Part shown: positions 24,550 to 62,751 of the stretch, one piece after another
How the letters are laid out: every line of letters starts with the position of its first letter
Position numbering within the stretch: the first letter of the stretch is position 1
Origin: Felis catus
Lineage: Eukaryota
Length of the DNA stretch: 64,000 nucleotides
Assembly: GCF_018350175.1 (NCBI RefSeq)
Contig: NC_058377.1
Coordinates: forward strand, 60,760,001 to 60,824,000
Direction of reading: 5' to 3'
Notes under the pieces: generated by a model
Database searches by the model: none
Told to the model about the DNA's origin: nothing
Seen by the model: the letters and a program-made list of their open reading frames with translations, nothing else
Made by a program: the position numbers and the translations under genes

Positions 24550-24710
24550 CTGACTCTTGATTTCAGCTCAGGTCAATATCTAGTCCCACATGGAGCTCTG
24601 TACTGGCAGCATAGAACCTGCTTGGGATTATTTCTCTTCCTCTCTTTCTTCCCCTCTCAAGTTCTCTCTCTCTCTCTCTCAAAATAAATAAACTTAAAAA
24701 AAAAAAAAGA
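24550..24710 (+). mobile_element. Headless CAN-SINE at the left edge of unit A (paralogue 49400-49540)
   Basis: ctgactcttgatttcagctcaggtca...(CT)n and A tail, fused directly to the L1. Confidence 0.8.
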
Positions 24711-25991
24711 AATAACATGGCTGGTAACTCTAGGGCTTCTAGAAATTAATGAATCCCAAAACTCTTCCATGATGGTCCATACCTAAGATACACACATTGA
24801 GAACTGGAAATCAAAGACTGAGTGAGACTCCAGGTTTATCTGGGATTGGGGATAAGGACAAGGCTCTGCTAAGTGAGGCATCATACCTCCTTGGGCCTTT
24901 CTTCTTCTTCTGCTTTCTGACCTCTAGCCTCAAAGATAAAGTAAGATTAGTTAGTGACCTCAGGCATAACAGATGTAGCAGAGAATCAATAATAAATACA
25001 TAATCAGGTCATCAGGGTATAAGTGGGTGAGGGTGATGACTGTAGATTGTAGCAGGTGCTGGAAGAGGTTGGAGGAGGGGATTTTAGGATGAACTATGAA
25101 CTTGTTATGTTCATAACCCCAGCACCAAACACAGTACTGGCACATAGTAAGTGGTGAAGAAATGCTTGTTGACTTTGAGCATGAAATACATCATACTAAT
25201 AACACTGTGTTTGGCTCCGTGCAGAGTAGACAATACTGATGGTGCATTATTCTCCTCTTGAAGTTACTGTAGAACTGAGCTCAGACAGCAGATCTCAGCC
25301 CCGAATAATGTTTAAAAACCAGGAGAAGCTGACCTGCTTTTGTTAAGTTCTGACTGGCTTCTCTTAGCCATTAGGTCACCTTAGAGGTGTGTGCTGAAAG
25401 AAGAGAGGCACTGGGATGACTCTGCCCAGTACAAATGGGAAATCAAGTCTCTTGCTCAAAGTACTCACTTGATAGTTTTTGGAAATGAGTACAGGTGCCT
25501 GGAGTTAGTTACAGATTTGATGTCCTGGACCCACTGGTTCTTCAGGTTATAATGAAGGCAATCTTCTATTTTCACTGATTCATGATACTTAAGGGTACTT
25601 CTAGTCATGATAGAGCTGCACAGTTTAAGTAAGTAGGTTTTCTACTGGAGCTGGAATTCAGTGTGCTTCATTTGATCATTTCATACTAACTAGGTTCTCT
25701 GATTGCCATTTTCTCCTGTCTCTATGGTAGTCCCATCCTCTTATAGAATAATATTTGGTGTAACATAATCACTTTATAGGTATTTCTTGAAGAGAAATGT
25801 AAAATGTTCCACATATTTTATATTTGTAAATAAAAAGAAGTGAGTGAGGGACAAATTGTTATTTATCTGTCAAAGGTATCTTATCAGACAGATAACAACC
25901 TTCAAAGTTTCCATGGGAATAATGAAAGAAGGCCTTAGCACTGAAATGTCTGGTATCCCATTTTGGAGGAAGGAGGCAAAAATGGACCTGC

Positions 25992-26023
25992 CAATGCCAT
26001 CTTGTGGTCAGGAGTGGAATTGT
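25992..26023 (-). promoter_or_regulatory. Candidate CTCF site (core plus upstream motif)
   Basis: Minus strand ACAATTCC-actcc-TGACCACAAGATGGCATTG fits the core CCASYAGRKGGCR (one mismatch), with an upstream-motif-like sequence at a 5-nt spacer. Confidence 0.6.
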
Positions 26024-26407
26024 TGTGACGATGGTAGCAGGCACATGTAAAAATTTAATCATTCATTCATGCAAGTAGGTTGTGTTTTTTTTTTTTTTTT
26101 TTAATAGTCAGCTAAGTTTGGGCAAGAATAGTGAATAATTATGTATAATTTTATATTCAAGTAAGAGGAACAGATGGTGAATAAGTTGGATATAAAATAT
26201 TTGTGTTGAAAGAAAATTGATGATATGTAAGTTGATACGTAAGATATGTTGAGGTATGTGAGTTAAGAAATACCTCACTGAGAAAGTGGTATTAGTTGAG
26301 ATCTAAACGGTGTTGAGAGGAAGATAGAATATTCTAGAAAATGACAGCTGGAGGAAGTGGGAAGATTTAGGTCAAAGCACTAAAACAGATAAGAAGTGAA
26401 TATATTT

Positions 26408-26850
26408 GAGGAGTGCCTGAGTAGCTCAGGAGGTTCAGTATCCGACTTTGGGTCAGGTCATGATCTCACGGTTAGTGAGTTCGAATCTTGCATCAGTCTC
26501 TGCTGTCTGCACAGAGCCTGCTTTGGATCCTCTGTCTTCCTCTCTCTCTGCCCCTCTCCTCTCTCTCTCTCAAAACGAGATATTTTTGTATAAAAATAAA
26601 TTTAAAAATATTTAAAAAAAAAGAAGTGAGGGGTACCTGGGTGGCTCAGTCAGTTAAGCGTCAGACTTCAACTCAGGTTATCATCTCACGATTCATGAGT
26701 TCAAGCCCCACGTCAGGCTCTGTGCTGATAGCTCAGAGCCTGGAGCCTGCTTCGGATTCTGTGTCTCCCTCTCTCTCTGCCCTTCCCCCATTCACGCGCT
26801 CTTTCTGTCTCTGAAAACTTAATACAAGTAAAAAAAAAAGTTAAAAAAAA
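26408..26850 (+). mobile_element. Two tandem CAN-SINEs, specific to unit A
   Basis: Repeated target agaagtga; empty site in unit C near 51390. Confidence 0.88.
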
Positions 26851-26929
26851 TAGAAGTGAATGTATTTCGAGGAAGAATAGAAAGGGCAGAAGCATTGGAA
26901 AAAGGTAAAAACTGGTATGTTGAAAAAAC

Positions 26930-27320
26930 AGAATATACTACTTAACAATAATAGGAAATGGATTACTTATAAAAAATGCAACAGTATGACTGAATCTGAA
27001 AATATTTATACTGAATGAAAGATACCAGACTCGAAAGAATGTATTATTTATTATTTCATTTATGAAAGTTTTAGTGAGAGAGAAATTAATCTATAGTGAA
27101 TGAAATCAGATCAGGGTTTTCCTGGTTTGGGTACAGAGGTGGTGATTGACTCCAGAGAGGCAAGAGAAACTTTTCTGAAGTGATGGAAATGTTCTATGTG
27201 TTAATTGGGCTGGTAGCTACAGAGGCATTTATATGTGTCAGTACTCTTCAAACTGTGTGTTAAAATACTTACATTTTATTGTCACAAGTTATACAACAAC
27301 AAAGCTGATTTTAAAAAGAG
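26930..27320 (+). mobile_element. Ancient L1M 3' end (paralogue at about 51470-51850)
   Basis: gaatgaaagataccagac...gaaacttttctgaagtgatggaaatgttctat...aaaactgattttaaaaa-type L1ME/MD terminus. Confidence 0.6.
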
Positions 27321-29757: not shown

Positions 29758-30702
29758 TCAGGGATCTTTTCCACAAAAACCTTGAATAACCCTGTTTCTG
29801 ATCTGCTTGGTTCTAACTCCATAGATGATGGGGTTGAGCATGGGAGGAACCAGGAGATAGAGATTGGCAAACATGATATGTACTGCTCGGGGCACATGAT
29901 GTCCAAAGCGGTGGGTGAGAAAAGTGAAGAGGGCAGGGATATATAAAGCCAAGATGACACAGATATGGGATGCACATGTGCCAAAAGCCTTGAGCTGGGC
30001 TTGACCAGAAGGCAACCCCAGAACAGTTCTCAAAATCATCACATAGGAGACACTGATAACAATCATATCAAAGCCAACCACAGAGAAGGCCACAAAGAGC
30101 CCATATGCACGATTTACTCTAGTGTCTGCACACACCAGCTTTAGCACAGCCATGTGTTCACAGTATGGCTGGGGAATGATCTGGTTGGGGCAGAAGGGCA
30201 TCCTGGAGACCATAATGCAGAAGGGGCTCACCAAAAGCAATGCTCTCATCATCACAGCTGCTCCCAATTTACCCACTACAGCTGGGGTCAGGACACTTGA
30301 GTGACGGAGTGGGAAGCAGATGGCCACATAACGGTCCAAGGCCATAGCCATGAGTACCCCAGACTCCACAGAGGAAAAGGCATGGATGAAGAACACCTGG
30401 ATGAGGCAGGCATGGTATTGAGTCTCATGAGCATGAAACCAGAGTATAGCCAGCATTTTAGGTTGGGTGGAAGACGAGAGGACCAGGTCAGTGATAGCCA
30501 GCATGGCTAGAAAGAGGTACATGGGCTCATGCAGAGTGTGGTCAATTCGGATTATATGGAGGACAGTGGTATTGCCAATTATAGCCACAACATACATGGC
30601 ACAGAGAGGAAAGGCAATCCAAAATTGGGAATTCTCGAGTCCTGGGATCCCAAGTAGGATGAAGGACACAGGATAAGATGAGTGGTTCCCTGAAGCCAAC
30701 AT
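29758..30702 (-). CDS. OR52R1: Olfactory receptor 52R1 paralogue A, 314 aa, intact
   Basis: MLASGNHSSYPVSFILLGIPGLE...IRIDHTLHEPMYLFLAMLAITDLVLSSSTQPKML...MALDRYVAICFPLRH matches OR52R1 as recalled. The first ATG is at 30702 (the track start at 30705 is GTG). Acceptor ccttctcAG at 30729-30728. Confidence 0.93.
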   Translation of the reverse strand: MLASGNHSSYPVSFILLGIPGLENSQFWIAFPLCAMYVVAIIGNTTVLHIIRIDHTLHEPMYLFLAMLAITDLVLSSSTQPKMLAILWFHAHETQYHACLIQVFFIHAFSSVESGVLMAMALDRYVAICFPLRHSSVLTPAVVGKLGAAVMMRALLLVSPFCIMVSRMPFCPNQIIPQPYCEHMAVLKLVCADTRVNRAYGLFVAFSVVGFDMIVISVSYVMILRTVLGLPSGQAQLKAFGTCASHICVILALYIPALFTFLTHRFGHHVPRAVHIMFANLYLLVPPMLNPIIYGVRTKQIRNRVIQGFCGKDP

Positions 30703-34030: not shown

Positions 34031-35101
34031 CCTAACTTGCCTCTCTCCTCTGTATACACATAAGCAAAGGCAGCGTATTTGAATGGATGCACAAAAGTGT
34101 GTGTTGTTGAGATTACAGGAGTATGAGCTTATCAGTATGCATGTATTTTTTGTTAGTAAATTCTCCTTTGTGAAGCTGGAAAGTCCTTCTCACTTAGCCC
34201 AAACAGTTAAGCCTATGCAGAACTTCCTCTCACTCCCTGTGTAGAGCCTTGCTGGTATTCTCTTATTTATTATTTCTTAGCATTCCCTGGTATAGGATAG
34301 GTCAAATGAAGACTTGACAGCAATTATTTAAAAACAGAGGGTAAGGCTTTATTTGCAGAGTTCAAAGCTGTCAGACTTCAGAAGCTATGCCTCACCAAAT
34401 CAAAATCCAACATACATTTACAGGGAAACAAATCACACAAAAATTCACCAAGAGTATCAAGTTTACAGCAATCTGTTTATGGTGAATTGCAATCATTATA
34501 TTCACAAAGGTCATGGTTTATTTTAATACATTAGTATAACAAAAATCTGACTACAACTGTTTTTGTTAGAGAGTCCAGGTTTAGAGGAAATAGTCAAGGT
34601 TTTATTATCCTGGGGATCAGGCTGACATTGTAATTTTGGAGTTATCTCTGTTTGCAGATTTTTCTCTTTGTCTATTTCTTTTAGCTGTCAGAGATTAAAC
34701 ACTTGGTGTAATGGAAGAGAAAGAAGTGCCAGGTTTTTCTTCTTCCTTCTTTTGTTCTTGTTCTTTTTTCTGCTCTTATTCTTGTTCCGATTGTCCTCTC
34801 TTTCTCCTTCTCCTTTGTCTTTGTCTCCATCTCAACTTCAGCAAGTTCCTGCGATGATACATTTCACTGAGTCAAAACTACTCTCTGTCAGGCAGAGACA
34901 TAATACTTGTTTTAATTATTCTACATCATGTAGTCTTAACAGCTACTTTAGAGGTAGTTCTATCTTCTGCATTTTACATATAAATAAATCGAGGTTTAGC
35001 TAGGTTAAGTTACTTCATTAAATACAAGTAAAGGGCAAATCTTTCTGACTCAAAGATGTCACTTTTCCTACTATATCATACTTTGCACATGTTATGAGTA
35101 T

Positions 35102-35631
35102 TAGGGCTGAAACTAAGGTGAGGTAAGGAACATATTTCTCTTGGGCATGAAAGAAGGGTGCTATAAAAAACTCATCCACCAATCAGATAAATAACATTTT
35201 ATGCAGTGTGTTAAAAAGTAAAAATTGATGCAAAAATCTTAATGAACAGAATATCAAAATTCTCATTAAAGACCAGAGCTGTACCAAGCAACAGTGTCCT
35301 GTAGCAAAATGCAAACTATGCACCCCTATGTACATATTTTTATGTATTTTTAATAATGTTTTCTTGAACATTAAAATATTTGAGACATTGAAAAGTAATT
35401 ATATTAAATACCACGCCATTATTTTCAATTTAAGTATTTTATTAATACCAAAATAGAATAAATTAAAATTTATATTTCATCTAAAGTCAAATAAAAATTA
35501 TTTAGAATCCTCATTTACTTACAAGAAAACTTCCAACATGGTGACTTTTTGAAATGACATAAGCAAAGAAGTACTTACGTACTTACTTACTTTATTTATT
35601 TATTTTTAAAGTTTATTTATTTATTTTGAGT

Positions 35632-35662
<31 letters not shown>

Positions 35663-35920
35663 TGGGGTAGGGGTAGAGACAGAGGGAGAGAGAGAGAATA
35701 CCAAGCAGGCTCCACACTGCCACTGCAGAGCCCAATGTGGGGCTTGAACTCATGAACAGTTAGATCATGTCCTGAGCTGAAACCAAGAGTAGACAGTCAC
35801 TTAACCAACTGAGCCACCCAGGCCCCAAGTACATATTTAAAATAGTAACAATAATTTATCTAAAGTACTAGTGCACATTTTTTTTTTCCTTTTGCTCTAA
35901 TACAGCTTGGCATGGCACTG
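35102..35920 (+). mobile_element. MER96-like hAT relic interrupted by a SINE
   Basis: Termini tagggctgaaactaaggtgagg... and ...gcttggcatggcactg. Confidence 0.5.
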
Positions 35921-36436
35921 TTATTTATTTAAAATTTTGATATTTTATGAATCATGGAATAAAAATTATTTTATTTTATTTATGTTTTTTAAACTTGATT
36001 TATTTATTTTGAGAGAGAGAGGGAGAGAGAGAGAGGGAAGGACAGAGAATCCCAAGAGGCTCTGTTCTGTCAGTGCAGAGACCACATGGGATTTGAACTC
36101 ACAAACCATGAGATCATGACCTGAGCCAAAATCCTGAGTCTGTAGCTTACTAACTGAGCCATTCAGGCACCACTGCCCACCCCCCAAATAATTTATTTTA
36201 TAAAAATATTGCATTAAAAAATTTTAAACATAATTACTGAATTTCTTTTTAAGAGAGAGAGAGCGCGCGCGTGCAAGTCCTGGGGGAGACACACAGGAAG
36301 ATGGAGAGAGAGGATCCCAAGCAGGCTCAATGTCCATCTAAGATTCTGATGTGGGGCTTGATCTCATGACCCTGAGGTCATGACCTGAAATGAAATCGAG
36401 GTTGACACTTAACTGAGTTAACCACCCAGGCACCCC
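35590..36436 (-). mobile_element. Cluster of three CAN-SINEs (35590-35826, 35970-36171, 36245-36436)
   Basis: Each has (GA)n, gagatcatgacctgag-type body and a ...ccacccagg-type head on the minus strand. Confidence 0.85.
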
Positions 36437-36899
36437 TAGTTACTGAATTATTGAATCCCTGTAATTTTACTCTCCTCAAAGTATTGTTGGCTATTAGCAA
36501 TTGTCCTTGGTGTATCTCCATCTTAATATGAATAAGGCCATGAGCACTTTCATGATTCTGAGTTTCAGGGGAAAGTTTGAAACACTCATATGTGTTTCAA
36601 ACTTCTAGAGAGTTTTTGCAGGATATTTTGTCCCTTCATTCATTCTCATTTCCATCTCTCTCCCTTTACTCTGCAAAGCCTAGAGAGGAAGAAAAGAGAT
36701 AGTATTTCCTCTTTCAAATTTCTACTCCAGTTTCTCCACCTCTCTGTCTCCTTGGTTCTTCTTCACCTCTTCTCCTGCTCCTTTATTTGTATCTTTACCT
36801 GCTGTTCGTGGGAGGGAGATATGACTTTGCCCTCACAGGACTCTATCAGAGAGAAGAGAAGTGAGAACAAAGAAGACCAACTCCTTGCAAAAGCCTCTG

Positions 36900-38342
36900 A
36901 AATGAAAATAAAGGAAGAGAGGAGGGATTACTCACCAATTTTCATTGAGCCTTGGAGTCCAGATGAGAAGACTCAGGCCCCATGCAGGATGCCAAAATGA
37001 AGTGAGTTGCAGTGGGGTCTGAGAGTGAATGGTCAAGAAAGAATTCTTGAGATGTTTTTCGTGCAAAAGGGTGTTTTCATTATAGCCTGCTGACAGGACC
37101 CATGAGCAGAAAGAGCTGCTCCCCCCACCCGTGACCCTTCCAGGGTGGGTTATGTGTGACATTCCTCAGGACAGAGGAATTAAGACAGAAATGACTGTCT
37201 TAATAATTTACAAGGAAAAGAGCAATCTCCAGAACCCCACAGACTCAATTTCCTAGAGCCCTAGTATCACCCTCTCCTCCATAATGATGTGGGGAACATA
37301 GGCAAGGAGAAAATGTAGACTAAATTAAATTTATTTATAACCTGCAGCCCTTTGACAAATACTTGAGATAGAGTATAACATTCCTCCAAAAAACTCCCAA
37401 CTGTCTTGTCTTAATGTTAATGCCTTACAAGAGAGAAAAATATCTTTAGCTCAACAATAGTAAGGCCTCCAGGATCTTATGAGTCCAAATTGGCACATGA
37501 AAGTCCTTTTGGAAGCCTTTCTTTTTCCTTAACTCTCCCAACTCCCAAACCTAAAATCACAATCCCAGTGCAGCTCTTTCAGTCCATGGGTCCTATTCAT
37601 GTGCTTTAAGAAAATCACCATTTTGCATAGAATTTACCCTATGACCCAACAATTGCACAAGTAGGCATTTATCCAGAGGCTACAAAAATACTGATTCGAA
37701 GGAGCACATGCACCCAATGTTTATAGCAGCTCTATCAACAATAGCCAAATTAGGGAAAGAGCCCAAATGTCCATCCACTGATGAATGGAAAAAGAGATGT
37801 GGTATATATATTTAATGGAATAATATTTGGTGATTAAAAAGAATGAAATCTTGTCATTTGCAACAACGTGGATGGAAGTAATGTATTATGCTAAGCAAAA
37901 ATAAGTCAATCAGAGAAAGACGAATATCATATGATTTCACTCATATGTGGAATTTAAGAAACAAAGCAGATGAACATAAGGGAAGGGAAGGAACAATAAG
38001 ATAAAAACAGAGAGGGAGGCAAATCATAAGAGATTCTAAAATACAGAGAACAAACTGAGGGTTGCTGGAGGGGAGGTAGGTGGGGGGGATGGGCTAATGG
38101 GTGATGGGCATTAAGGAAGACACTTGTTGGGATGAGCACTGGGTGTTATACATGAGTGGTGAATCACTGGGTTCTGCTCCTAAAACCAGTACTACACTGT
38201 ATAGTAAGTAACTTGAACTTAAATAAGTAATTTTTTAAAAACTCAATGTTTTGAACCAAAGATATCTCAAGAATTCTTTCCTGGCCTCCACTCCAGATCC
38301 CTGCTCACCCCATCCCCCCCCCCCAACTCCAAAACCACATCA
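36900..38342 (+). mobile_element. ERV solo LTR (carnivore LTR-like) split by an L1
   Basis: LTR-like sequence ending ...ccaaaaccacatCA. The text aaaatcaccattttgca / aaaactcaatgttttgaa resumes across the L1. Family not identified. Confidence 0.55.
37628..38240 (+). mobile_element. Older carnivore L1 3' fragment inserted into an LTR
   Basis: ccctatgacccaacaattgcac...gagcactgggtgttata...aaataag: L1 ORF2 C-terminus and 3' UTR. Confidence 0.85.
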
Positions 38343-39013
38343 AGAGGACCTCTATTATGAAAGCTGTAAGGGCTAGGAAGAAATACATAGTTCATAGAGG
38401 TAGCCAGTGCAGGCCACATCAAAGAAGGGAGTTGTTTCACCACAACCATAGCATAGTTGATCTAGAACAGGAAGCAGATCCAGAATTGAGAATCCTCCCA
38501 TCTTGGAAAGACACAGGAAGTGGGTTGGTGCCAGTCCCTGGTGGTGGCATTAGAGGATCACTGCTGATGGGGAAGGAAACTATCCTCTAAAGAGACTAAG
38601 CAAGTAATAAACATGCTGTTTTTGAGAAGGCTGGGAACTATGAGAGCTGAGTGACCAGAAAATTGTCTGAACAAGAAACACTAATTATATGTTATAAATA
38701 CACATATTTTTCCTAAACTAAATTAAAGAAAAATTGAGTTATCCTGTTTCTCCTGATGGCTGTGTTTATAAATCACATGCCCAGATATAGAATGAATAAT
38801 AAACACTTCAAATATTAAATTTCCAAATGGAAATGAATCACAGTAAATGCTATGTTAACCCCTGTCCTTTTCTGCTCATAAAAGTCAATTGCATCTAAAG
38901 AAAGATACTATGTTTTCATGATGCCTATGGGCATATCTGAATACTCTTCTGTTTTAGAAACATTACTTAAGATAAATTTGAAAAATCAAAAAAATGGATA
39001 GAAGAAAGGAGGG

Positions 39014-40330
39014 TGTGATCAGTTATGATTAATAATAAATATATATTTGGTCTTTGTCTACTTTTCTGGCAGAGAGCTCCCAAAACTCTTGGACTTTCCT
39101 AAGTGATAAAAGCCATTAAGGTGTCTTTTATTATGTCAATGACATGACATTCTGACCCCACACAAGGATAGGGCCCACTTGCCAGAGGAACCAGCCACGT
39201 GATTGGAGAGTGGGAACTTTCAGTTCCAATAGACCTCCAGGGAGGAGAGAGGGGCTGGAGTTTGAACCAATTGCCAATGGCCAATGATTGCATCTATCAA
39301 TCATGCCTATGTAATGGAGCCTCCATAAAAACCCAGAAGGACAGGTTCTGAGAGCTTCAATGTTGGTGAACACTTGAAGAGTGGAGAGAATTGTGTGAGA
39401 AAAAGCCCACCGACCCAAACAAAGGAGGGATGTGGAGACTTAGAACACAGTGAAGCCAGGTTTTAATCAACATTCTTGCAAGAGCAGCTGTCTGATGGAC
39501 AGGCACACTAGGGACAGTTATAGCAAACAATTTATTTCCTAGTGTGCAAGTCCCTCCCCTAGTTCCTCATTGGCTAAGTACTACAAAGGTTTCAGCCCTA
39601 CCCAGGTGTTGCCTATGCCCATGTAAGGCAAAAACTAGTGTGATTGGAACAAATGTACATTCCCTGAAGTGAGGCAGAGACTTTTAGTCACTCCTCCTTG
39701 TGTTTTTTGGTGTATGCTCATTGCAAAGCCTACAAAAATAAGCCCTTGAAAAGGAGAGGGGAAGAAGAACCAGGAAGTAGAGTGTCCAAGAGTTTCAGAC
39801 TCCACTGTGGAGGGAGTTCGAACATATTTCCAATAGGTTGTAAACCTACTGTTAACTATACAGCACAGCTTTTATTTGGTATTTCTGAAAATGAATAATC
39901 TCCCTTACTTCTCACAATAGTACCCCTGGCAAAGGCATATGGGTTCAATGCCCTTTCCCCATCCTTTGTGCTATGCATCTCCTCCCTCTGGTTGCTCCTG
40001 AGTTATGTCCTTATAATACACTGGTAATCTAGTAAGTAATATGTTTCTCTGAGTGCTATAGGTTGCCCTAGCAAATTAATTGTGCACAAGACGCAGGCCA
40101 AGGGACACTGATTTATACTCAGTAGGTTAGAAGCACAGGTAACAACTGTTCTTATGATTAGTGTGAGAGGTCAGGTGGGAGGTGCAGTCTTGCAAGATTG
40201 AACCTTGAAGTTGCAGAATCTGATGCTGTCTCCTGAACTGAATTGTAGGATACCCAGTTGGTGTCCAGAGAATTGCTTGCTGGTGTGGAGTACCACCATA
40301 CAAACTGTGATTTGGTCTCAGAATAGTCAT
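39014..40330 (+). mobile_element. MER21-like LTR interrupted by a second LTR
   Basis: Starts TGTGAT...aaatatatatttggtc...ctggcagagagctcccaaaactcttgg, resembling the MER21-type consensus as recalled. Confidence 0.6.
39394..39916 (-). mobile_element. Nested solo LTR, 523 bp (ERV1-like)
   Basis: Termini TGTGAGAA...TTCTCACA (8-bp inverted), 4-bp TSD attg/atag, ATTAAA on the minus strand near 39465. Confidence 0.75.
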
Positions 40331-40749
40331 TTAGAGGGAGGGGGAGAGACAGAAAGTGAGACCTAATTTCATCAGGAGTTTGTCCATCTCTCTCCTTGTG
40401 TTGCCTGACGGACTGGGAGATCTCTGAGCTCTGAGGCCTCTAGAATCTTTTTCTATGCATATGTATTTCTATTTAGAATTGGCATCAGCCTATGGGAAAA
40501 TGTTATTTTTCTTTTTTCTTTAATATTCTATCTTGATCATTTTTTACATCTTTACATACTTTGTGCAAACACATTAATTAAATGATACATGATATTCAAT
40601 TGCTCATTCTTCATCTGTGTCTTATGGATCAATATTTGAATGTTTTCTGTTTTTGTTTTTATAAATAATCTATACATGTCATTGTACTTTTTTTTTTCTC
40701 AAATTCTATTTTTATAGAGATATGAGATGGGGAAAGTATACCTACTCTT

Positions 40750-45394: not shown

Positions 45395-45612
45395 ACTCAC
45401 CTTGAGCTGTGCTTTATCTCTGACCATAAGCAGCTCTAACTGGCTCCTGTGATTTAGCTTTTTACAGAGACTATGAGTTTGGACCTATTTAAAGACCTGT
45501 TTAAGTCTGGCCTTTCCCTTCGCCAGCATTAATTCTTTCCTTCCTCTTGGGCCCCACTGCCTCATACTCTGGCTTCCTCTGAGACTGGAGGGTAAGCTGG
45601 AAACATTAACCC
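45395..45612 (-). promoter_or_regulatory. Putative promoter and first exon of OR52R1-B
   Basis: Donor GTGAGT 45400-45395, TATA-like 45494-45486, AATTAATGC 45534-45526, O/E-like CCCAAGAGG 45551-45543. Confidence 0.55.
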
Positions 45613-46363
45613 CTAACTTGCCCTCTTTCCTCTGTATACACATAGCTGAAGCAGGGGATTTGAATGCATGTGCAAGAATGTGTGTTGTTGAGATTACAGG
45701 AGTGTGAGCTTATCTGTATGCATGCATTTTTTGTTAGTGAAACAAAATGTGGAATGTGGAATGCGAAAGTGTGTTGATATGTTTGTTGATGTGTATCTGG
45801 GAGATGTGTTAATGAACACGTGTAAGGATTGGATTTGCATGTGAATGTATGTGTATAAGCTGTGTTTGTGTAGGTATAAATAATCATTTGCTGTTGGTAT
45901 ACATATTTAGTGGGATAGTGTGGCTTTGTGAGTACAAAGCCACTAAATACACATGTTTTATGAAGGCATACACTGAGCTCCAAACCCGACACTGTGATTA
46001 CACATCACTGTGTGTCTATACGAGTATGTATAGGCAATATTGTGGGTTTGATGAGGGTGTTGACAATCTGTTGGTGCTTCTGTGTGTCCCAAGGTACAAT
46101 GGTCTAAGCCCTTTCACTTCTTATTAGGAGAGGGAAAACAAATTCCAGATGGAGGTCTTGCCATAGTTGTTTGTGGAAAGTTGTGAAGCTGGAAAGCCCT
46201 CCTAGCTCAGCCTGAACAGTTAAGTCTGTGCAGAGCTTCCTGTCACTCCCTGTGTAGGCCTAGCTGGTATTCTCATATTTATTTTTCTCAGCATTCCTTG
46301 ATATAGGATATGTCAAAGGAATATTTGACAAATAAATAACTAAAAATAGAAAGTAAGGATTTA

Positions 46364-48374: not shown

Positions 48375-49125
48375 TCATTTCTTGTTTTTCACATCATCAA
48401 TTCCTTCAAAACTTATATATTTATAGCCAATCTTTTCAGTACTCTTTTCAAGTTCTTTTCTATGAAATATAGTCCTCATAGTTCATCATTTCAACCATAC
48501 TTGTGTGAATAACCTCAACACTATCTATCCATCACAGCTACTATTATGTCATTGTCTCCTGCTACCCCTGTACCACTGAGCAACTGCTAGAAGCAATAGC
48601 ACCAATGATCAGATTGGGACCATTGCAAGTTCATGGCAACTGACTTTACCTGGGCTCTCAAAGCAGCCCAAACTATTTTCACATTTCTCTCCCCTTAATT
48701 GTGCAGAGACATTGTGTTTGGAAACTGTAATAACTGACCTCCTTGACTAAGTTTATTGTTCAGACTCTGTCCACTAATTACAATGAATATCTTTTGTTAC
48801 TTTGTGCATCTTCTCAAGAGGCAGAACTTCCAACCATAATGTAGAAGGTTAAACTGTCTGTTATCTGACCTCAGAAGGTGTATAACGATGGTTTTTTGTC
48901 CTCATTTCTTACTCTCCTGAAGAAAGTGCTCTCACTGCCAGTTGCTCCACCATGCAGGGTTCATTACCACATTCAGGAAGGAAATCAAATATGGTTAGAG
49001 GGGAAATAATCAGGGCTATGCTCTGCTTTCTCAAAGTTCAGGGAGAAGCTTGCTGATGTTAACACTGTAGTGAAGGCCCTGGAGACCGAAAAAGACAAGA
49101 AAATGTATGTGCACTGCTTGGACAA

Positions 49126-49380
49126 TTGTTGCGGGTTGAATTGTGTCCCCCCCACCCCAATTTATATGTTGAATTTCTACTCCACTGTACCTCAGAATGT
49201 GACTTTGTCATCAGAGTGTAGGTGGATAAAATGAGGTCACGTTGGAGTAGGGTGGGCCCTAATCCAATTGACTGCTGTCTTCATACAAGGGGAAATTTGG
49301 AAACACAGATGTACAGGTAGAGAGAAATTGCCATTTGGCCACGAAGGTAGTTATCAAGATGATGTGTCTATAAGCCAAAG
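49126..49380 (+). mobile_element. MLT1B/C-like LTR, 3'-truncated at the unit B/C junction
   Basis: Its 5' end matches 61546 onward; it stops just before a SINE half at about 49400. Confidence 0.75.
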
Positions 49381-49508: not shown

Positions 49509-50816
49509 AAAACAAATAGATAAAGTTTAGAAAACAAAAGAAATAACATGGCTGGTAACTCTAGGGCTTCTAGAAAGTAGTGAATCCCAAACACTTCTGT
49601 GATGGTCCATACCTAAAATATGCACATTCAGAACTGGAAATCAAAGACTGAGACTCCAGGTTTATCTGGGATGGGGATGAGGCCAAGGCTCTGCTAAGTG
49701 AGGCATCATACCTCCTTGGGCCTTTCTTCTTCTGCTGCTTTCTGACCTCTAGCCTCAAAGATAGAGTAAGATTAGTTAGTGACCTCAGGCATAACAGACG
49801 TAGCAGAGAATCAATAATAAATACATAATCAGGTCATCAGGGTATAAGTGGGTGAGGGTGATGACTGTAGATTGTAGCAGGTGCTGGAAGAGGTTGGAGG
49901 AGGGGATTTTAGGATGAACTATGAACTTGTTATGTTCATAACCCCAGCACCAAACACAGTACTGGCACAGAGTAAGTGGTGAAGAAATGCTTGTTGACTT
50001 TGAGCATGAAATACATCATACTAATAACACTGTGTTTGGCTGTGTGCAGAGTAGACAATACTGATGGTGCATTATTCCCCTCTTGAAGTTACTGTAGAAC
50101 TGAGCTCAGACAGCAGATCTCAGCCCCGAATAATGTTTAAAAACCAGGAGAAGCTGACCTGCTTTTGTTAAGTTCTGACTGGCTTCTCTTAGCCATTAGG
50201 TCACCTTAGAGTTGTGTGCTGAGAGAAGAGAGGCACTGGGATGACTCTGCCCAGTACAAATGGGAAATCAAGTCTCTTGCTCAAAGTACTCACTTGATAG
50301 TTTTTGGAAATGAGTACAGGTGCCTGGAGTTAGTTAAAGATTTGATGTCCTGGACCCACTAGTTCTTCAGGTTGTAATGAAGGCAGTCTTCTATTTTCAC
50401 TGATTCATGATACTTAAGGGTACTTCTAGTCATGATAGAGCTGCACAGTTTAAGTAAGTAGGTTTTCTACTGGAGCTGGAATTCAGTGTGCTTCATTTGA
50501 TCGTTTCATACTAACTAGGTTCTCTGATTGCCATTCTCTCCTGTCTCTGTGGTAGTCCCATCCTCTCATAGAATAATATTTGGTGCAACATAATCCCTTC
50601 ATAGGTATTTCTTGAAGAGAAATGTAAAAGGTTCCACATATTTTATATTTGTAAATAAAAAGAAGTGAGTGAGGGACAAACTGTTATTTATCTGTCAAAG
50701 GTATCTTATCAGACAGATAACAACCTTCAAAGTTTCCATGGGAATAATGAAAGGAGGCCTTAGGACTGAAATGTCTGGTATCCCATTTTGGAGGAAGGAG
50801 GCAAAAATGGACCTGC

Positions 50817-50848
50817 CAATGCCATCTTGTGGTCAGGAGTGGAATTGT
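50817..50848 (-). promoter_or_regulatory. Candidate CTCF site, duplicate copy
   Basis: Same sequence as 25992-26023. Confidence 0.6.
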
Positions 50849-50985
50849 TGTGACAATGGTAGCAGGCACATGTAAAAATTTAATCATTCATTCATGTAAG
50901 TAGTTTTTTCTGGTGAGCTAGGTTTGGGATAGAATAGTGAACAAGTATGCTATACTTATGGAAGTTATATTCAAGTCATACTAAC

Positions 50986-52112
50986 CTCCTATTAAAGCCA
51001 ATACTGAAAAGGTTCTAGGCACTGAGGCTTTTATGTTACTAAAACCAACATCAGTTGAAGGTACTTTAAGAAGAATCAGGAACATGTTTGCTTCTCCCAG
51101 AAGAAACACGATTGGAGACTAAAAGTGTCCCCAAAAATGAATAGGTTGGTGAATAAGTATTTGAATATTTACATATTCTGTTAGGATAAGGAGGAAATAA
51201 AATATTTATGTTGAAAGAAAATTACGGTGGGGGGGCAAGAATTAGTTGACATATATGAGTTAAGCACACTTCACTGATAAGGTTGTATTAGTTGATATCT
51301 AAAGGATGTTGAGAGGAAGATAGAATATTCTAGAAAATAACAACTGGGGGACGTGGAACGATTTAGAGCAAAACCCTAACACAGATAAGAAGAGAATATG
51401 TTTGGAAGAAGAATAGAAGGGCTGAAGTAAAGGAAAATGGTGACAACTGGTATGTTGAAAAAATAGAATATACTGCTCAGAAATAATAGTAAATAACTAC
51501 TTATCATACATACAACAGCATGGCTGAATCTGAAAATCTCTATACTGAGTGAAAGACACCAGAATTAAAAGAATATATTATTTGTTCTTAGATTTATGAA
51601 AGTTTTAGTGAGAGAAAATAAATATATATTGAAAGAAATCAGATCAGGCTTTGCCTGGTTTGGGTACAGAGGTGGCGACTGGCTCCAGAGAGGCAAGAGA
51701 AACTTTCCAAAGTGTTGAAAATGTTCTATGTCTTAACTGGGGTGGGAGCTACAGAGGCATTTATATGTGTTAGAACTCTTCAAACTGTGCATTAAAATAC
51801 TTACATTTTATTGTCACAAGTTATACAGAAATAAAGTTGATTTTAAAAAGAGGGAGAGGGGCTCACAATCACTAACTGATTTGCTGATAACAGTATAACA
51901 GTCCCTTGATAACTCTAAAATTTGAGGATCATGAAAATGCTCCTTCAGAATACCTATTCATTTTTGGGGACACTTTTAGTCTCTAATAGTGTTTCTTCTG
52001 GGAGAAGCAAACATGTTCCTGATTCTTCTTAAAGTACCTTCAACTGATGTTGGTTTTAGTAACATAAAAGCCTCAGTGCCTAGAACCTTTTCAGTATTGG
52101 CTTTAACAGGAG
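50986..52112. repeat. Inverted repeat: 161-bp arms (50986-51146 and 51952-52112), 805-bp spacer
   Basis: The arms are reverse complements with about 3 mismatches. The left arm is absent from paralogous unit A. Confidence 0.92.
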
Positions 52113-54001: not shown

Positions 54002-54934
54002 TCAACAACAACCTTGAATGACCCTGTTCCTGATCTGCTTGGTTCTAACTCCATAGATGATGGGGTTGAGCATGGGAGGAACCAGGAGATAGAGATTGGC
54101 AAACATGATATGTACTGCTCGGGGTACATGATGTCCAAAGCGGTGGGTGAGGAACGTAAAGAGCGCTGGGATATAAAAAGCCAAGATGACACAGATATGG
54201 GATGCACATGTTCCAAAAGCCTTGAGCTGGGCTTCACCAGAAGGCAACCCCAGAACAGTTCTCAAAATCATCACATAGGATACACTGATGACAATCATAT
54301 CAAAGCCAACCACAGAGAAGGCCCCAAAGAGCCCATATGCACGATTTACTCTAGTATCTGCACACACCAGCTTTAGCACAGCCATGTGCTCACAGTATGA
54401 CTGGGGAATGATCTGGTTGGGGCAGAAGGGCATCCTGGAGACCATAATGCAGAAGGGGCTCACCAAAAGCAATGCTCTCATCATCACAGCTGCTCCCAAT
54501 TTACCCACTACAGCTGGGGTCAGGACACTTGAGTGACGGAGTGGGAAGCAGATGGCCACATAACGGTCCAAGGCCATAGCCATGAGCACCCCAGACTCCA
54601 CAGAGGAAAAGGCATGGATGAAGAACATCTGGATGAGGCAGGCGTGGTATTCAGTCTCATGAGCATGAAACCAGAGTATAGCCAGCATTTTAGGTTGGGT
54701 GGAAGATGAGAGGACCAGGTCAGTGATAGCCAGCATGGCTAGAAAGAGGTACATGGGCTCATGCAGAGTGTGGTCAATTCGGACTATATGAAGGACAGTG
54801 GTATTGCCAATTATAGCCACAATATACATGGCACAGAGAGGAAAGGCAATCCAAAATTGGGAATTCTCGAGTCCTGGGATCCCAAGTAGGATGAAGTATG
54901 CAGGATGTGAAGAGCTGTTCTCTAAAGCCAGCAT
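54002..54934 (-). CDS. OR52R1: Olfactory receptor 52R1 paralogue C, 310 aa; GGA>TGA removes the last 4 residues
   Basis: Same motifs; ATG at 54934. Ends TGT TGT TGA AAA GAT CCC TGA, against TGT GGA AAA GAT CCC TGA in copy A. All 7 TM helices are retained. Confidence 0.9.
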   Translation of the reverse strand: MLALENSSSHPAYFILLGIPGLENSQFWIAFPLCAMYIVAIIGNTTVLHIVRIDHTLHEPMYLFLAMLAITDLVLSSSTQPKMLAILWFHAHETEYHACLIQMFFIHAFSSVESGVLMAMALDRYVAICFPLRHSSVLTPAVVGKLGAAVMMRALLLVSPFCIMVSRMPFCPNQIIPQSYCEHMAVLKLVCADTRVNRAYGLFGAFSVVGFDMIVISVSYVMILRTVLGLPSGEAQLKAFGTCASHICVILAFYIPALFTFLTHRFGHHVPRAVHIMFANLYLLVPPMLNPIIYGVRTKQIRNRVIQGCC

Positions 54935-55792: not shown

Positions 55793-58051
55793 TCCTGCAT
55801 GATGAATTTTCATGAGGTCGGCCCCAACGAGTACACCAACCTGAGCACTTTTCTACTTGGCACAGAACAGGGTTTTAATAAATGTTTGCTGAAGCAAACA
55901 ACAAATAAATGTCATTGTTCAGGGGCAATGGACTTTTTACCTGGTTAGCCATATCTTAAAAATGTCCTAATAGAACCTTCTAAACACTACTTTGATGCCA
56001 GGTCACAAGACAGCTATATGTATTTTTCATGCTGGAGTCTGAGCTGCTGTCTGTTGACAGGCATGAATGTCTTCCTGTGCCAATACTTGCATTACAATGG
56101 TTGACCCTGGCTGATCCCTCTGCTGACTGTTACCTATGTAGAGTCAATGACCAATTTAATCTCAATTGACCAGAGCCTTTGTTTGAATGTCCTCCCTAAC
56201 GGAAACACCCAGATAAGAAGAGTATCTTTTCAAATCTCCCTTAACCAGCCTCTGGAGACTAACAAAATTTCATTCAACCTGATGTAATGGTTCCTAAAAA
56301 GGTTTTGTCCGAGATCCCAAATAAACTTAATCTCTTTCTGACTTTCCCTATATTTATAGCATTATAAGAGAAATGTGGGTCAGAACTTAAAAATTTTGCT
56401 TTAATTTGGAAACTTTACTATCCTACCTAGATAATAGCTAGGGCTTTGCTCAGAACAAATACTCCTCTCCAGGGCATAGTGAAAATTCAGAAACACACAC
56501 GTTATCTGGTGTTTAACATTCTTTTTCATGCGCTTCTGCCTGGCTTTCAGTTTATCTTCTGTTTGAACCAGAATCTTCTTTTCTCCTTCCCTTCTGCCCC
56601 CTGTAAGTCACCCTCCATTTGTGAAGACATACTCACTGGGTCACATGGGCACCTGGGAGAGCATAATAAGGCCATTTTTGTTCCTGCACTGAACACTGAT
56701 AAAGGTGCTGGGTAAACCTACAATGTCTCAAAGTGCATAATAATCTAATTACTCATAGAAAATGTTGCTATTTTTGTAAATATAACACTATTTGCTTTTA
56801 CATGTTATTGTTTTCAATACACACTTACACACTTCTGCCCATCAGCCTTCATGGGCAATTTACCTGTTCTACATACTCTTTTTGGAGTGGTGACTCTTCT
56901 TAGGTGGGGACCAGGAACCCAAGTCTGAGGTAGGAGATGGGGCTCTTGACTGGTGCCTCTCTTTCTTCTCTACATTTACATTCCCATGGAATCTGATGTC
57001 CTCACTATCAGCATTTCCTTTGTCTTTTTCCCTCCTCAGACTTGCAAGGAGTTAAGTCTGCAACTAATGTGGAGTGGACAAGGACTTAACCAATTAACCA
57101 TTAGCCAAGAATAACCAATCTTAGGTCATTTTTTTTTTATACAGTGTGTGAGGTTTTCAATAGTAATTCTGAGGGGAGACACAAGTCATCAACTTGCTGC
57201 TGAGTTGGGGGAAAGAGATGTACATTCCCTAAAAAGTAGGAAAAAGAAGGGCAATATAATTTCCCTTCTTGCCCAAAATTCCTTCCCCCTTTCCCTGCTT
57301 ATAAATATGTCCCTGTCCTTGCCTACCATATGCTAGACCTCACGTGAGCATAGTGCTTATTGGCAGAAGAAATTAAGCCATCTTTTTTTCTATGTTACAG
57401 CCAGGGTGATCACACATTGAACTTCAGATTCAATGTTGCTGTTCTCCAAAGTACAATATGATTTGTGAGAACTTGGCATAACTTTTGTTTCAGGGAATAT
57501 GGTTGCAAGAAAAATGTTCTCACACTGCTGGAGCTCAGTTTTCATCTGTGAGTATGGGTTTGAATCCAGTGCTGATACCACTACCTCTGTTGACTTCAAT
57601 TACCCCACTCATTATGTAGAAATAGTTATGTTCATCAGTTTAATCGAGTTGTTCAAGTCTGAAAGGGTAAAGGATAAAATGGGCTGAGATTTTGCTAAGG
57701 AATGGCTTCAGAGAAATTTAGTCTGTTCTCTCACTTTGGGGTATCTAAAACTAAGGCATGTAGCAAGATTGCCGAAGTGGGGTAGGGTTCAGATCCTGCG
57801 TCCTTTGTGGAGGGATTGAGTGTGGAGGCAGGCTGCCTACTTGTCTAGAATTTCCCTGGAGGACACAGTGTGAGCAGCGAATTGTCTCCCCATCTCAGAA
57901 GGAAATTCACCAGTCATGGATCGCTGGACCTGGAGCCCGCATAAGTCAGGTCATTCCGCACAGTGCATTGCCTTGCATTTCAGATTCTTAGAGACCCTGT
58001 GAGTCCTACTGTTCTCTGGGAAGGGCAGAGATGACTGGGGCATAGGGGACC

Positions 58052-58270
58052 ACTCACCTTGAGCTGTGCTTTATCTCTGACCATAAGCAGCTCTAACTGG
58101 CTCCTGTGATTTAGCTTTTTACAGAGACTATGAGTTTGGACCTATTTAAAGACCTGTTTAAGTCTGGCCTTTCCCTTCGCCAGCATTAATTCTTTCCTTC
58201 CTCTTGGGCCCCACTGCCTCATACTCTGGCTTCCTCTGAGACTGGAGGGTAAGCTGGAAGCATTAACCCC
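58052..58270 (-). promoter_or_regulatory. Putative promoter and first exon of OR52R1-C
   Basis: Essentially identical to the copy B element; donor at 58057-58052 and TATA-like at 58151-58143. Confidence 0.55.
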
Positions 58271-58949
58271 TAACTTGCCCTCTTTCCTCTGTATACACAT
58301 AGCTGAAGCAGGGGATTTGAATGCATGTGCAAGAATGTGTGTTGTTGAGATTACAGGAGTGTGAGCTTATCTGTATGCATGCATTTTTTGTTAGTGAAAC
58401 AAAATGTGAATGTGGAATGCGAAAGTGTGTTGATATGTTTGTTGATGTGTATCTGGGAGATGTGTTAATGAACACGTGTAAGGATTGGATTTGCATGTGA
58501 ATGTATGTGTATAAGCTGTGTTTGTGTAGGTATAAATAATCATTTGCTGTTGGTATACATATTTAGTGGGATAGTGTGGCTTTGTGAGTACAAAGCCACT
58601 AAATACACATGTTTTATGAAGGCATACACTGAGCTCCAAACCCGACACTGTGATTACACATCACTGTGTGTCTATACGAGTATGTATAGGCAATATTGTG
58701 GGTTTGATGAGGGTGTTGACAATCTGTTGGTGCTTCTGTGTGTCCCAAGGTACAATGGTCTAAGCCCTTTCACTTCTTATTAGGAGAGGGAAAACAAATT
58801 CCAGATGGAGGTCTTGCCATAGTTGTTTGTGGAAAGTTGTGAAGCTGGAAAGCCCTCCTAGCTCAGCCTGAACAGTTAAGTCTGTGCAGAGCTTCCTGTC
58901 ACTCCCTGTGTAGGCCCTTGCTGGTATTCTCTTATTTCTTTTCTCTTAA

Positions 58950-59529: not shown

Positions 59530-60057
59530 GCTCTGCCATTTAAGCCCAACATTCATTTATAGGGAAATAAATCACACAAAATGTTACCAACATTATCAGG
59601 GTTATAGTAATCTGTTTATGGTGAATTGCCATCATCAAGTTCACAAAGGTCATGGTTTAAGATATCAGCATAACAAAAATCTAGGGTACAACTGTTTTTG
59701 TTAGGGAGTCCCAGTTTACAGGAAATATTCAAGGTTTTATTATTCTTGGGATCAGGGTCACATTGTAATTTTGGAGTTATCTCTGGTTGTAACTTTTTCT
59801 GTGTCTGCTTCTGTTAGCAGTTGTGGATTAAACACTTGGTGTAATGAAAGTAGAAGAGAGTGCCACATGCTTCTCTTTCTCCTTCTTTCTTAACTAGAGG
59901 AATTTTCTCCCAAATAACATGAAACATCTCGGGATAGGACCTGAGTTTCCTCATCTCATGAATCTTCCCATGATCCCCAATGCTATGGTGGCTCCAAGCA
60001 GACATGATATCCAAGCTCTTATTGAAGTAACTTGTTAGACCATCCACAGTGTTTTTC

Positions 60058-60272
60058 TTTTTTTTTTTTTAATGTTTATTTATTTTTGAGACAGAGAGAG
60101 ACAGAGCATGAATGGGGGAGGGGCAGAGAGAGAGGGAAACACAGAATCGGAAGCAGGCTCCAGGCTCTGAGCCATCAGCCCAGAGCCCGACGCGGGGCTC
60201 GAACTCCCGGACCGCGAGATCGTGACCTGGCTGAAGTCGGACGCTTAACCAACTGCGCCACCCAGGCGCCCC
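60058..60272 (-). mobile_element. Young felid SINE, specific to unit C
   Basis: Perfect TSD ccacagtgtttttc. Confidence 0.92.
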
Positions 60273-61545
60273 ACCACAGTGTTTTTCAACTCTAGCGGGG
60301 CATGACTTGCTGAAATGAGTGTGTAGCAGGCAGGTCAGTACTTTCCTGATTTGGTCTCGTAAAGTTCTCCTCATGGTTTGTGTGTTTCAAAAGCTGGTGT
60401 CTCTGCAGGATGCACAGAGGACTTGTGCACTTGGCTTGCAGACCTCTAAACCTCAGTCTCCAGTAGACAGTGAAAAGATTTGTGGGCAATATTGAGAGTC
60501 TAGTTAAGGTTGGTTACCACGAACTTGTAGCCACACCAATCTGTGAGTTAGGTTTTGTGGGGTTGTGAGGGCAGAGACAGAGAAAAATGTTTGGAAAGGA
60601 AGTTTTGATGGATGAAAAAGCTGTTGAGGATATTGACCTGAGAATACTGAGATACTTGCATGTAATTATGTCAAAAGCTTGTCCCCATCCATAGCCCCAT
60701 AGCTCTTCTATCCTCACTTGTGTTGTCCTCTATCTCCACAGTGGATACTCAGTCAATCATGAATGGACATGGCCTGAACCTTGCCAAAGCTCAGAGATAC
60801 TCAGTCTCTGAATCCTTGAACATACCCTATGTATATTTTCCCAATCTTTTCAGTCCTCTTTTCTTTTCAAGTTCTTTTCTATGAAATATAGTCCTCATAG
60901 TTCATCATTTCAACCATACTTGTGTGAATAACCTCAACACTATCTATCCATCACAGCTACCATTATGTCATTGTCTCCTGCTACCCCTGTACCACTGAGC
61001 AACTGCTAGAAGCAATAGCACCAATGATCAGATTGGGACCATTGCAAGTTCATGGCAACTGACTTTACCTGGGCTCTCAAAGCAGCCCAAACTATTTTCA
61101 CATTTCTCTCCCCTTAATTGTGCAGAGACATTGTGTTTGGAAACTGTAATAACTGACCTCCTTGACTAAGTTTATTGTTCAGACTCTGTCCACTAATTAC
61201 AATGAATATCTTTTGTTACTTTGTGCATCTTCTCAAGAGGCAGAACTTCCAACCATAATGTAGAAGGTTAAACTGTCTGTTATCTGACCTCAGAAGGTGT
61301 ATAACGATGGTTTTTTGTCCTCATTTCTTACTCTCCTGAAGAAAGTGCTCTCACTGCCAGTTGCTCCACCATGCAGGGTTCATTACCACATTCAGGAAGG
61401 AAATCAAATATGGTTAGAGGGGAAATAATCAGGGCTATGCTCTGCTTTCTCAAAGTTCAGGGAGAAGCTTGCTGATGTTAACACTGTAGTGAAGGCCCTG
61501 GAGACCGAAAAAGACAAGAAAATGTATGTGCACTGCTTGGACAAT

Positions 61546-61999
61546 TGTGGGTTGAATTGTGTCCCCCCACCCCAATTTATATGTTGAATTTCTAACCCCC
61601 AGTACCTCAGAATATATCTTATTTTGAAATAGAGTCATTAAAGACATAGTTAGCTAAGATGAACTTACACTGGAGTAGGGTGGGTCTTGGTCCAATATGA
61701 CTGATGTCCTTATAAAAATTGAAATTTGGACCCAGAGACATATAAATAGATAGAGAATACCATGTGGACATGAAGGCAGAAATCAAGATGATGTGTTATA
61801 AGCCAGTTTTATAGCAAACCACCAGAAGCCAGGAGAGAAGCATTGAACAGATTCACTTTCATAGCCAACAGAAGAAACCAACATGTCTGATACCTTAATC
61901 CTAGACTTCTAAGCTCCAGAACTATAACGCAATACATTTCTGTCAGTTAAGCTATTCAGTTTGTGGCACTTTATTATGGCAGCCTAACAAACTAATACA
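61546..61999 (+). mobile_element. MaLR LTR (MLT1B/C-like), full length
   Basis: tgtgggttgaattgtgtcccc...ggcagcctaacaaactaataCA; 5-bp TSD acaat/gcaat. Confidence 0.8.
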
Positions 62000-62751
62000 G
62001 CAATAAATCCATTTTATCCTTAATTTTAAATCTTCATCTATAAATAATTATAGTCCACATGAGCCAGTGGATTTTTTTTTTTTTTTAACTAGGCTTCATG
62101 CCCAGCATAGAGTCCAATGTGGGGCTGAACTTGTGATCCTTAGATCAAGACCTGAGCTGAGATTAAGAGTTGGGCAGTTAACTAACTGAGCCATTCAAGA
62201 TCAGCAGCCAGTGGATTTTAAACATAGTTTTTATTAGTTTATCTAATTAATTGCTAAATGTAATTTAATTCAATTATTTATCTAATTAAATTGTTTTCTA
62301 TTTAGGCAGTGATCCTACTGTATCCCACATAACTTAGGGGTGGCCTTGTATGCATGTAAGGATAGATCAATACATTATTGAAAAAAATGATAAAGAAACC
62401 AGAAATAGCTTCAAGCAGAATTAATTTTCAGCAGAGAAAGTAATGCACTTCAGGGACAGAAAAATGTCTTTATGGCACTAAACTAATTGTCTGTATAAAA
62501 GAAAAATGAACCTTAACTCCTACCTCAAAAAAATCTTTATTGAATTATAATATAAACCTAGATTTGAAAGCTAGAACTATAATATTCTAAAAGAAAAAAT
62601 AGAATAATATTGTCATGAACTTTAGGAAAGCAAAGATTTCTTAGCCTGCAAAAAGCACTAGCTATGAAAGAAAAAAATACAGTTGAGCTTCATCAAAATT
62701 TTAAAAAATCAATCTCAAAAGGTGGCATTATAAATTTGAAAAGGCAAACAT

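Follow-up and report, generated by a model that had tools for sequence, protein, structure and literature searches.

How can three neighbouring receptor genes pass for recent duplicates while the DNA around them is clearly old? This question is raised by a 64,000-nucleotide stretch of the domestic cat genome (Felis catus, NCBI RefSeq assembly GCF_018350175.1, contig NC_058377.1, positions 60,760,001 to 60,824,000 of the forward strand; hereafter the window), which carries three OR52R1-like odorant receptor (OR) genes that we call A, B and C. Our alignments show that the array is a mosaic, in which islands have very probably been kept alike by repeated ectopic gene conversion between neighbours since an old duplication, likely of early-Carnivora age or older. 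The original prediction, which also invoked recurrent ectopic conversion, went further and proposed that B had received an A-type receptor core under a C-type promoter as part of an exchange of regulatory and ligand-binding modules; the conversion itself is borne out by homogenised synonymous sites, diverged flanks on both sides, indels at tract ends and swaps in other felids, and the modular exchange fares less well, as described below.

Islands of near-identity in an old array

The window holds five odorant-receptor open reading frames (ORFs), all on the minus strand; the three OR52R1-like ones are all intact, and their proteins are separate entries in a public protein collection:

29758..30702, minus strand: OR52R1-like copy A, intact coding sequence (CDS), 314 amino acids (aa) (ORF and protein comparison; structural relative OR52cs)
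41331..42275, minus strand: OR52R1-like copy B, intact CDS, 314 aa from the homologous ATG (ORF and protein comparison)
54002..54934, minus strand: OR52R1-like copy C, intact CDS, 310 aa with an earlier stop (ORF and protein comparison)

Their closest named relatives are OR52R1-like proteins of tiger (98%), another at 96%, meerkat (91%) and other mammals (85-89%), the best named matches of the window proteins being felid OR52R1-like at 96-98%. The best match of copy A among solved structures is OR52cs (8HTI, E 1e-131), and the carboxylate-binding R6.59 (R265) and G5.39 (G201) are present in A, B and C. The earlier stop of C recurs in cheetah C and clouded leopard C.

The start codons lie 11,573 bp (A-B) and 12,659 bp (B-C) apart, in agreement with the predicted 11.6 and 12.7 kb, and self-alignment delimits collinear units at about 24633-34752 (A), 40439-49377 (B) and 49461-61805 (C). 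Unit A is without the distal part and unit B without the downstream part, and in their place lies a unique spacer:

34752..40439, no strand: unique spacer between units A and B, with short interspersed elements (SINEs) and an L1 fragment (self-alignment)

Identity over aligned columns from the ATG to the upstream block described below is 84.9% for A/B, 83.1% for A/C and 83.0% for B/C, with 86.1% for A/C downstream and 85.1% for B/C between the tracts. The flanks, for which the original prediction had estimated 80-90% identity, copy-specific SINE/L1 insertions and an old duplication, thus proved as described (83.0-86.1%; Kimura two-parameter distance, K2P, 0.15-0.19). Their SINE and L1 insertions are independent, including three different ones within about 150 bp of the homologous site past the stop codons, and an automated search for target-site duplications returned plausible duplications for some insertions only. 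A degenerate SINE tail sits at one common position in the left edges of A and C; if it is a CanSINE that was inherited through the duplication this would place the duplication within Carnivora, and an old conversion could have carried it instead.

Within this diverged DNA lie discrete tracts of a very different identity, all located by alignment and listed without strand:

30125..30635: coding conversion tract of A, codons 23-193, 1 mismatch to B 41698-42208 and 10 to C 54357-54867
44490..46260: B/C upstream tract, B side, 99.5% (proximal 538 bp 98.5%, distal 1,232 bp 99.9%)
57147..58916: B/C upstream tract, C side, ending about 25 bp short of a C-specific SINE
48443..49179: B/C distal tract, B side, 99.9%, with a B-specific SINE and an N gap beside its start; unit A has no copy
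60862..61594: B/C distal tract, C side
24710..26075: A/C downstream tract, A side, 97.3%; no copy in unit B
49541..50900: A/C downstream tract, C side, starting just inside the B/C unit junction near 49385-49400

All four tracts named in the original prediction are therefore present, at 97.3-99.9%. The A/B coding tract has 1 mismatch in 511 positions, the B/C upstream tract 9 mismatches and one 1-bp gap in 1,770, the B/C distal tract 1 mismatch and two small gaps in 733, and the A/C tract 37 mismatches in 1,360. Exact identical runs in the window reach 575, 509 and 587 bp. The edges are abrupt, a single bin taking the count from about 15-20 mismatches per 100 bp down to 0-3 (for the B/C upstream tract, 15/87 and then 2/100 in neighbouring bins at the proximal edge), and the tracts are flanked on both sides by DNA of 83-86% identity with the copy order kept. 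The binned unit alignment that the original prediction had proposed as a check thus showed identity that is not uniform; moreover, in the three-way alignment the longest run of B=C sites covers 86 of 1,273 polymorphic sites, a length reached by 0 of 10,000 permutations (maximum 16).

Several properties of these tracts bear on how they were formed. Their identities are graded (97.3, 98.0, 98.5, 99.8 and 99.9%), and the residual differences are transition-rich, at 8:1 in the B/C upstream tract and 25:12 in the A/C tract. An indel of at least 12 bp is found no more than about 30 bp from five of the six non-coding tract ends (P 4e-4 even at 15% per end): a 25-bp insertion, a 238-bp SINE, a SINE with a deletion, and differences of 30 bp in a microsatellite and of 19 bp in a poly-T stretch. 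The background is 10 such indels in 9,577 aligned flank columns (about 1 per kb, SINE insertions excluded). Tracts may end because heterologies stop them, or insertions may persist only where there is no tract; both fit islands. Copy A is separated from B and C over the upstream tract by a K2P of 0.147, compared with 0.17-0.19 in the adjoining flank. There is a weak GC bias here, with 91 sites GC in B/C and 62 GC in A (P 0.023, unpolarised; Fisher P 0.09 against the intron, 62:65), and GC at third codon positions is 0.60 in codons 23-193 and 0.47-0.49 afterwards.

The coding region behaves similarly. CDS identity among the three copies is 96.0-96.5% and protein identity 95-96%. Over the A/B core C is itself 98.0-98.2% identical to A and B, from which it follows that the coding homogenisation takes in all three copies; the predicted near-identity of the A/B core therefore stands, and its exclusivity to that pair does not. 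At four-fold degenerate sites of codons 23-193 the differences number 1/84 (A/B), 3/81 (A/C) and 2/81 (B/C), whereas in codons 194-310 every pair differs at 8 of 57-58 and the flanks at 15-17%. Since silent sites are homogenised, selection at the protein level alone is insufficient, and the contrast places conversion mainly on the segment from transmembrane helix 1 (TM1) to the second extracellular loop (ECL2). The TM5-TM7 third shows near-background silent divergence with small patches of alternating affinity. One such stretch, at 29842-29944 (codons ~253-287), holds 7 A-specific sites in 25 bp (B=C) beside 5 B-specific sites (A=C). The alternating patches around TM6-TM7 are likely older, small conversion tracts.

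Neutral substitution is taken to run at 1-2.2 x 10^-9 per site per year. At this rate the flanks would be about 35-97 million years (My) old, the A/C tract 6-14 My, the divergence of C from the A/B core 4-10 My, and the tracts of 99.8-99.9% identity at most 1 My.

Receptor pocket and candidate promoter

Did conversion move a ligand-binding module? The window proteins share residue numbering with OR52cs, for which the available text of the structural study (PMC10703812) gives octanoate-contact and active-state residues at 107, 110, 111, 158, 161, 198, 201, 208, 209, 258, 261, 264, 265, 275, 280 and 282. These 16 pocket and ECL2/TM6 network positions are identical in A, B and C and in 20/20 felid rows. 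The A/B core differs from C by 10 nucleotides and 5 residues, and the converted core is predicted from these alignments to carry no distinct pocket, which tells against the proposed exchange of ligand-binding modules. Copy-specific residues that are kept across felids fall outside the pocket set: G204 in 8/8 C rows, L253 in 7/7 full A rows and G272/K302/D303 in 5/5 B rows. Position 179, part of the ECL2 network in the same portion of PMC10703812, is P or S depending on the copy, and small tuning differences between copies are possible. A further residue, Q95, is confined to window A, window B and the B copy of leopard cat (3/21 felid rows), with E in the 3 outgroups; tentatively, it would have arisen in B and been copied into A, leopard-cat A being absent from the rows compared. 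As the sole polarisable residue, Q95 fits B-to-A transfer instead of the "A-type core" in B.

The upstream tract contains the following motif matches, together with a segment found by alignment:

45395..45620, minus strand: candidate promoter and non-coding exon 1 of B (motifs)
45395-45402, minus strand: splice donor consensus of B (strict donor pattern)
about 45486-45493, minus strand: TATA-like element of B (motif)
45575-45584, minus strand: O/E-like site of B (motif; TAAT motifs also present)
45741..46181, no strand: 440-bp segment that B and C have and A lacks (A junction near 34160)

No third, diverged copy of this 440-bp segment, of the A/C tract or of the distal tract was found in the window. 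Homologous donors lie at A 33812 and C 58052, and a homologous O/E-like site at A 33993. Exact matches to the strict donor pattern on the minus strand of 17-64 kb occur only at 33812, 45395 and 58052, about 3.1 kb above each ATG, and an AG acceptor lies 25 nt above each ATG. OR promoters are described, in the accessible part of one survey, as carrying both O/E and homeodomain sites no more than about 200 bp from the start site, in many cases with a TATA box, and then a non-coding exon and intron (PMC3247239); the layout of the upstream block matches this and is kept in A. We consider that the block is probably a promoter, a prediction from motifs. Its 300-bp core has a single O/E-like match, which is at chance level (P 0.23). 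The candidate promoter is near-identical in B and C and 13% diverged in A. That B carries a specifically "C-type" promoter goes beyond the data, given that the donor is not inferable from three sequences and the promoter role comes from motifs.

The other tracts gave no such signal. Neither the distal nor the A/C tract showed motif enrichment; the idea that the distal tract is a motif-rich element was dropped, the published O/E consensus giving 1 match against 0.39 expected (P 0.33), and the joint top rank that this tract held among 250-bp windows under a relaxed O/E pattern combined with TAAT motifs was not counted. The distal tract has acceptor-like and donor-like signals at 48907-49080 (minus strand) and 61326-61500 that could bound a further non-coding exon. 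Gene B has one copy of the A/C block 7-9 kb upstream of it, and the OR at 16222-17178 has the other at a like distance upstream; donor-like sites occur at 25463 and 50288, and from its position the block could serve the 5' region of the next gene, not the 3' end of A and C. Six RNA runs that share words with the window are metagenomes and do not count as evidence of expression.

Weighing the explanations

We examined 21 felid proteins of the 48 members in two clusters, a 176-aa fragment being left out. Classes A, B and C are found by terminal signature in Pantherinae and Felinae (Panthera, Neofelis, Lynx, Prionailurus, Acinonyx), and clouded leopard has all three with consecutive accessions. 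Across 19 felid rows (a partial snow-leopard protein and a chimeric protein excluded), paralogs differ by 3.0-3.4 residues and orthologs by 2.2 over core residues 16-200 (185 positions), while over the protein ends (125 residues) paralogs differ by 10.8-11.3 and orthologs by 2.6. I142 is present in 3/3 clouded-leopard copies and 0/18 other felid rows, and jaguar A equals jaguar C over residues 16-200. The protein P0124 of leopard and lion records combines an A-type N-terminus with a B-type C-terminus, the lion also having a full A, and may reflect a separate conversion event at the 5' end of B, or else be a hybrid gene.

Outside felids, at least two OR52R1-like records occur in ferret, bear, dog, horse, muntjac, shrews, tenrecs, sloth, galagos and marsupials. 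Since multiple copies are common in mammals, the single-copy state in human given in the original prediction does not make the triplication unusual. Differences in core versus ends are 2 vs 12 for a polar bear pair and 4 vs 10 for otter, with dingo the opposite (7 vs 4). A quick tree of 122 hand-picked protein rows, one long-branch row of which is unreliable, clusters the OR52R1 copies by lineage (felid clade 95, caniform clade 98). Judged from these proteins, the mammal-wide pattern could reflect an ancient array evolving in concert or duplication that happened repeatedly, two histories that proteins alone cannot separate. A broader version, in which an ancient mammalian array evolves in concert and the non-coding islands mark selected cis-regulatory elements (promoter with exon 1, distal and downstream), seems to us rather unlikely. 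One mustelid copy class (P0312, P0303, P0307, P0019) has L208/A209 at the bottom of the pocket, and mustelid paralogs differ at contact residues, unlike felid paralogs. Metagenomes scanned with protein A yielded 40 pattern matches, none of them a confirmed locus.

A number of observations count against conversion as the general account, or against its regulatory side. Run tests of A/B and A/C in the three-way alignment did not single out the coding tract, because C is homogenised there too. The five O/E-like matches in the upstream tract exceed the 1.09 expected (P 0.012), but this was 1 of 8 regions tested, and the A/C tract is without any. The class labels of the other felids come from terminal residues, not synteny, and within felids the core difference between same-species and cross-species paralogs is 3.0 vs 3.42 (permutation P 0.11), so that species-level clustering depends on few residues. 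Lastly, the non-coding tracts are known from one assembly, with an N gap 180 bp from the distal tract.

This last point leads to the possibility of an assembly artefact, in which collapse or mis-joining placed the sequence of one copy at both non-coding sites. The four N gaps of the window (134-154 bp) and the long exact runs speak for it, but 37 mismatches plus indels in the A/C tract (2.7%) are too many for collapse, residual differences that are graded and transition-rich argue in the same direction, and copies of 83% identity without long shared words (at most 36 bp in the B/C flank) would already have had to be near-identical before they could collapse. Moreover, coding homogenisation is seen again in other felid records on contigs of 113-116 Mb, and 14 non-RNA runs, of which 4 are flagged as a possible source, contain a share of 0.96-0.98 of the words sampled from 42300-46300, where B-only words inside the tract number 244/3,971 (6.1%); this last point is weak, as the runs listed tend to be the best holders. 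Assembly polishing may have slightly inflated the 99.9% figures of two tracts; the artefact as a whole is in our view very unlikely, and it is unlikely that the mosaic itself is false. Still less probable, at the far end of the scale, is that recent duplication, turnover by unequal crossing-over or strong purifying selection alone produced the pattern. The lineage grouping in the protein tree is what recent duplications would give, but they leave the flank distances and the independent SINE/L1 insertions unaccounted for; a single crossover gives identity up to the unit end, and the two-sided islands exclude single unequal crossovers; and the homogenised sites include synonymous and non-coding ones. 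For this window the tract and edge measurements largely refute it.

Combinatorial module shuffling, in which adaptive conversion places distinct ligand-binding cores under distinct promoters, likewise strikes us as very unlikely, if slightly less so than an artefact. It has in its favour that different pairs are homogenised in different tracts, that swaps differ by lineage, and that copy-specific residues are kept across felids while position 179 flips between P and S. The converted core, however, excludes TM5-TM7, the pocket and network residues are invariant, the cores differ by only 0-5 residues, the direction of Q95 is from B to A, and three sequences cannot tell which copy donated the B/C upstream block.

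Repeated conversion between neighbours therefore remains the reading that we prefer, and its likely course can be outlined. A break in one copy would be repaired from a misaligned paralog 12-25 kb away. According to the available portion of PMC3924818, conversion in rodents requires sequences that are more than about 80% identical and have an unbroken match of about 200 bp; no identical B/C block in the proximal flank is longer than 36 bp, so the flanks are likely unable to start events now, while the islands are able. Each long near-identical island would thus renew itself, and the flanks, broken by SINE/L1 insertions and indels, would have dropped out, large heterologies now fencing the islands. 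Purifying selection on the CDS, and probably also on the promoter and exon 1, likely helped these parts to stay above the identity threshold, and the absence of the 440-bp segment from A may have taken A out of the upstream island. An mRNA-templated mechanism was rejected, as the upstream tract takes in about 900 bp of the predicted intron and continues for 860 bp past the donor.

Neighbouring features and known systems

Two further intact class I OR ORFs, of 43-45% identity, lie at 3586-4530 and 16222-17178 and are putative OR51F genes, the neighbours expected for OR52R1 in the class I cluster; their DNA is 68% identical to each other, and we saw no signs of conversion between them. Copy B has an in-frame upstream ATG at 42467 that yields a 378-aa ORF (41331-42467), also in UniRef; this ORF extends across the splice acceptor that we predict and is probably a side effect of annotation. 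At 49130-49400 the B/C homology stops within an old LTR-like (long terminal repeat) element, which we take to be of MLT1 type, cut off in B and abutting a truncated SINE; this is the probable unit junction. Unit C has one more peculiarity:

50986..51146, minus strand: C-specific inverted templated insertion, a copy of 51952-52112 with 3 mismatches in 161 (sequence comparison)

The insertion occurs in unit C only, about 85 bp past the end of the A/C tract and 800 bp from its source; it differs from the C source at 3 positions and from the A homologue at 16. It resembles a template-switch repair scar of about the same age.

Sharon et al. (1999) reportedly dealt with gene conversion between OR paralogs. 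Tandem OR paralogs are known to yield mosaic receptors or homogenised coding regions by conversion, and the felid array involves the same kind of tandem genes with the same coding outcome; the treatment in the text available to us (PMC1995454) concerns coding regions only, whereas here three kilobase-scale non-coding tracts are homogenised too, one with a candidate promoter. In the cat and dog beta-globin genes HBB-to-HBD conversion affected promoter and exon separately, so that segments group by species (PMC5299747, accessible part). They are similar to the felid array as old tandem carnivore paralogs with a promoter (here a candidate one) and a coding part converted, but for globin the donor and regulatory effect are known and the OR52R1 array is known from sequence alone. 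BMP8A/B, DDX19A/B and TUBG1/2 show long-lasting mosaic concerted evolution with raised GC in the converted parts, and share with our locus identity peaks in diverged DNA and trees that mimic repeated duplication; in those pairs, as far as the consulted portion reports (PMC2720389), upstream regulatory regions diverged, whereas here the B/C upstream block was converted and three copies exchange pairwise. The tandem KRTAP1 genes likewise combine concerted coding regions, normally diverging flanks and abrupt transitions, but there the transition falls at the start codon and the stop codon in the text seen (10.1101/282418), whereas strong homogenisation is here confined to codons 23-193, and the termini still tell the copies apart. 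No description of the felid OR52R1 array or its conversion was found in the literature searched (titles and abstract starts; subscription journals lie outside this coverage). Taken together, the array is a new, clear example of an already known mode, mosaic concerted evolution, and the kilobase non-coding islands are the one feature standing out here.

What would this mean for the cat? We predict that all three receptors share one acid-binding pocket and that B and C stand under a near-identical proximal promoter, an outcome of homogenised, redundant receptors and not of new receptor-promoter combinations. Were the islands indeed regulatory elements, B and C would be chosen by neurons like a single receptor of doubled dosage, and OR regulatory DNA could be mapped through conversion islands with nothing but sequence. 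For the family, OR52R1 trees and copy-number histories may mislead, as apparent recent duplicates sit in DNA that diverged tens of My ago, and the near-identical coding regions and 500-bp exact repeats would confound read mapping and expression counts at the locus. The array may also serve as a natural test of OR gene choice, with B and C having near-identical candidate promoters in different positions and flanks, and A a diverged one.

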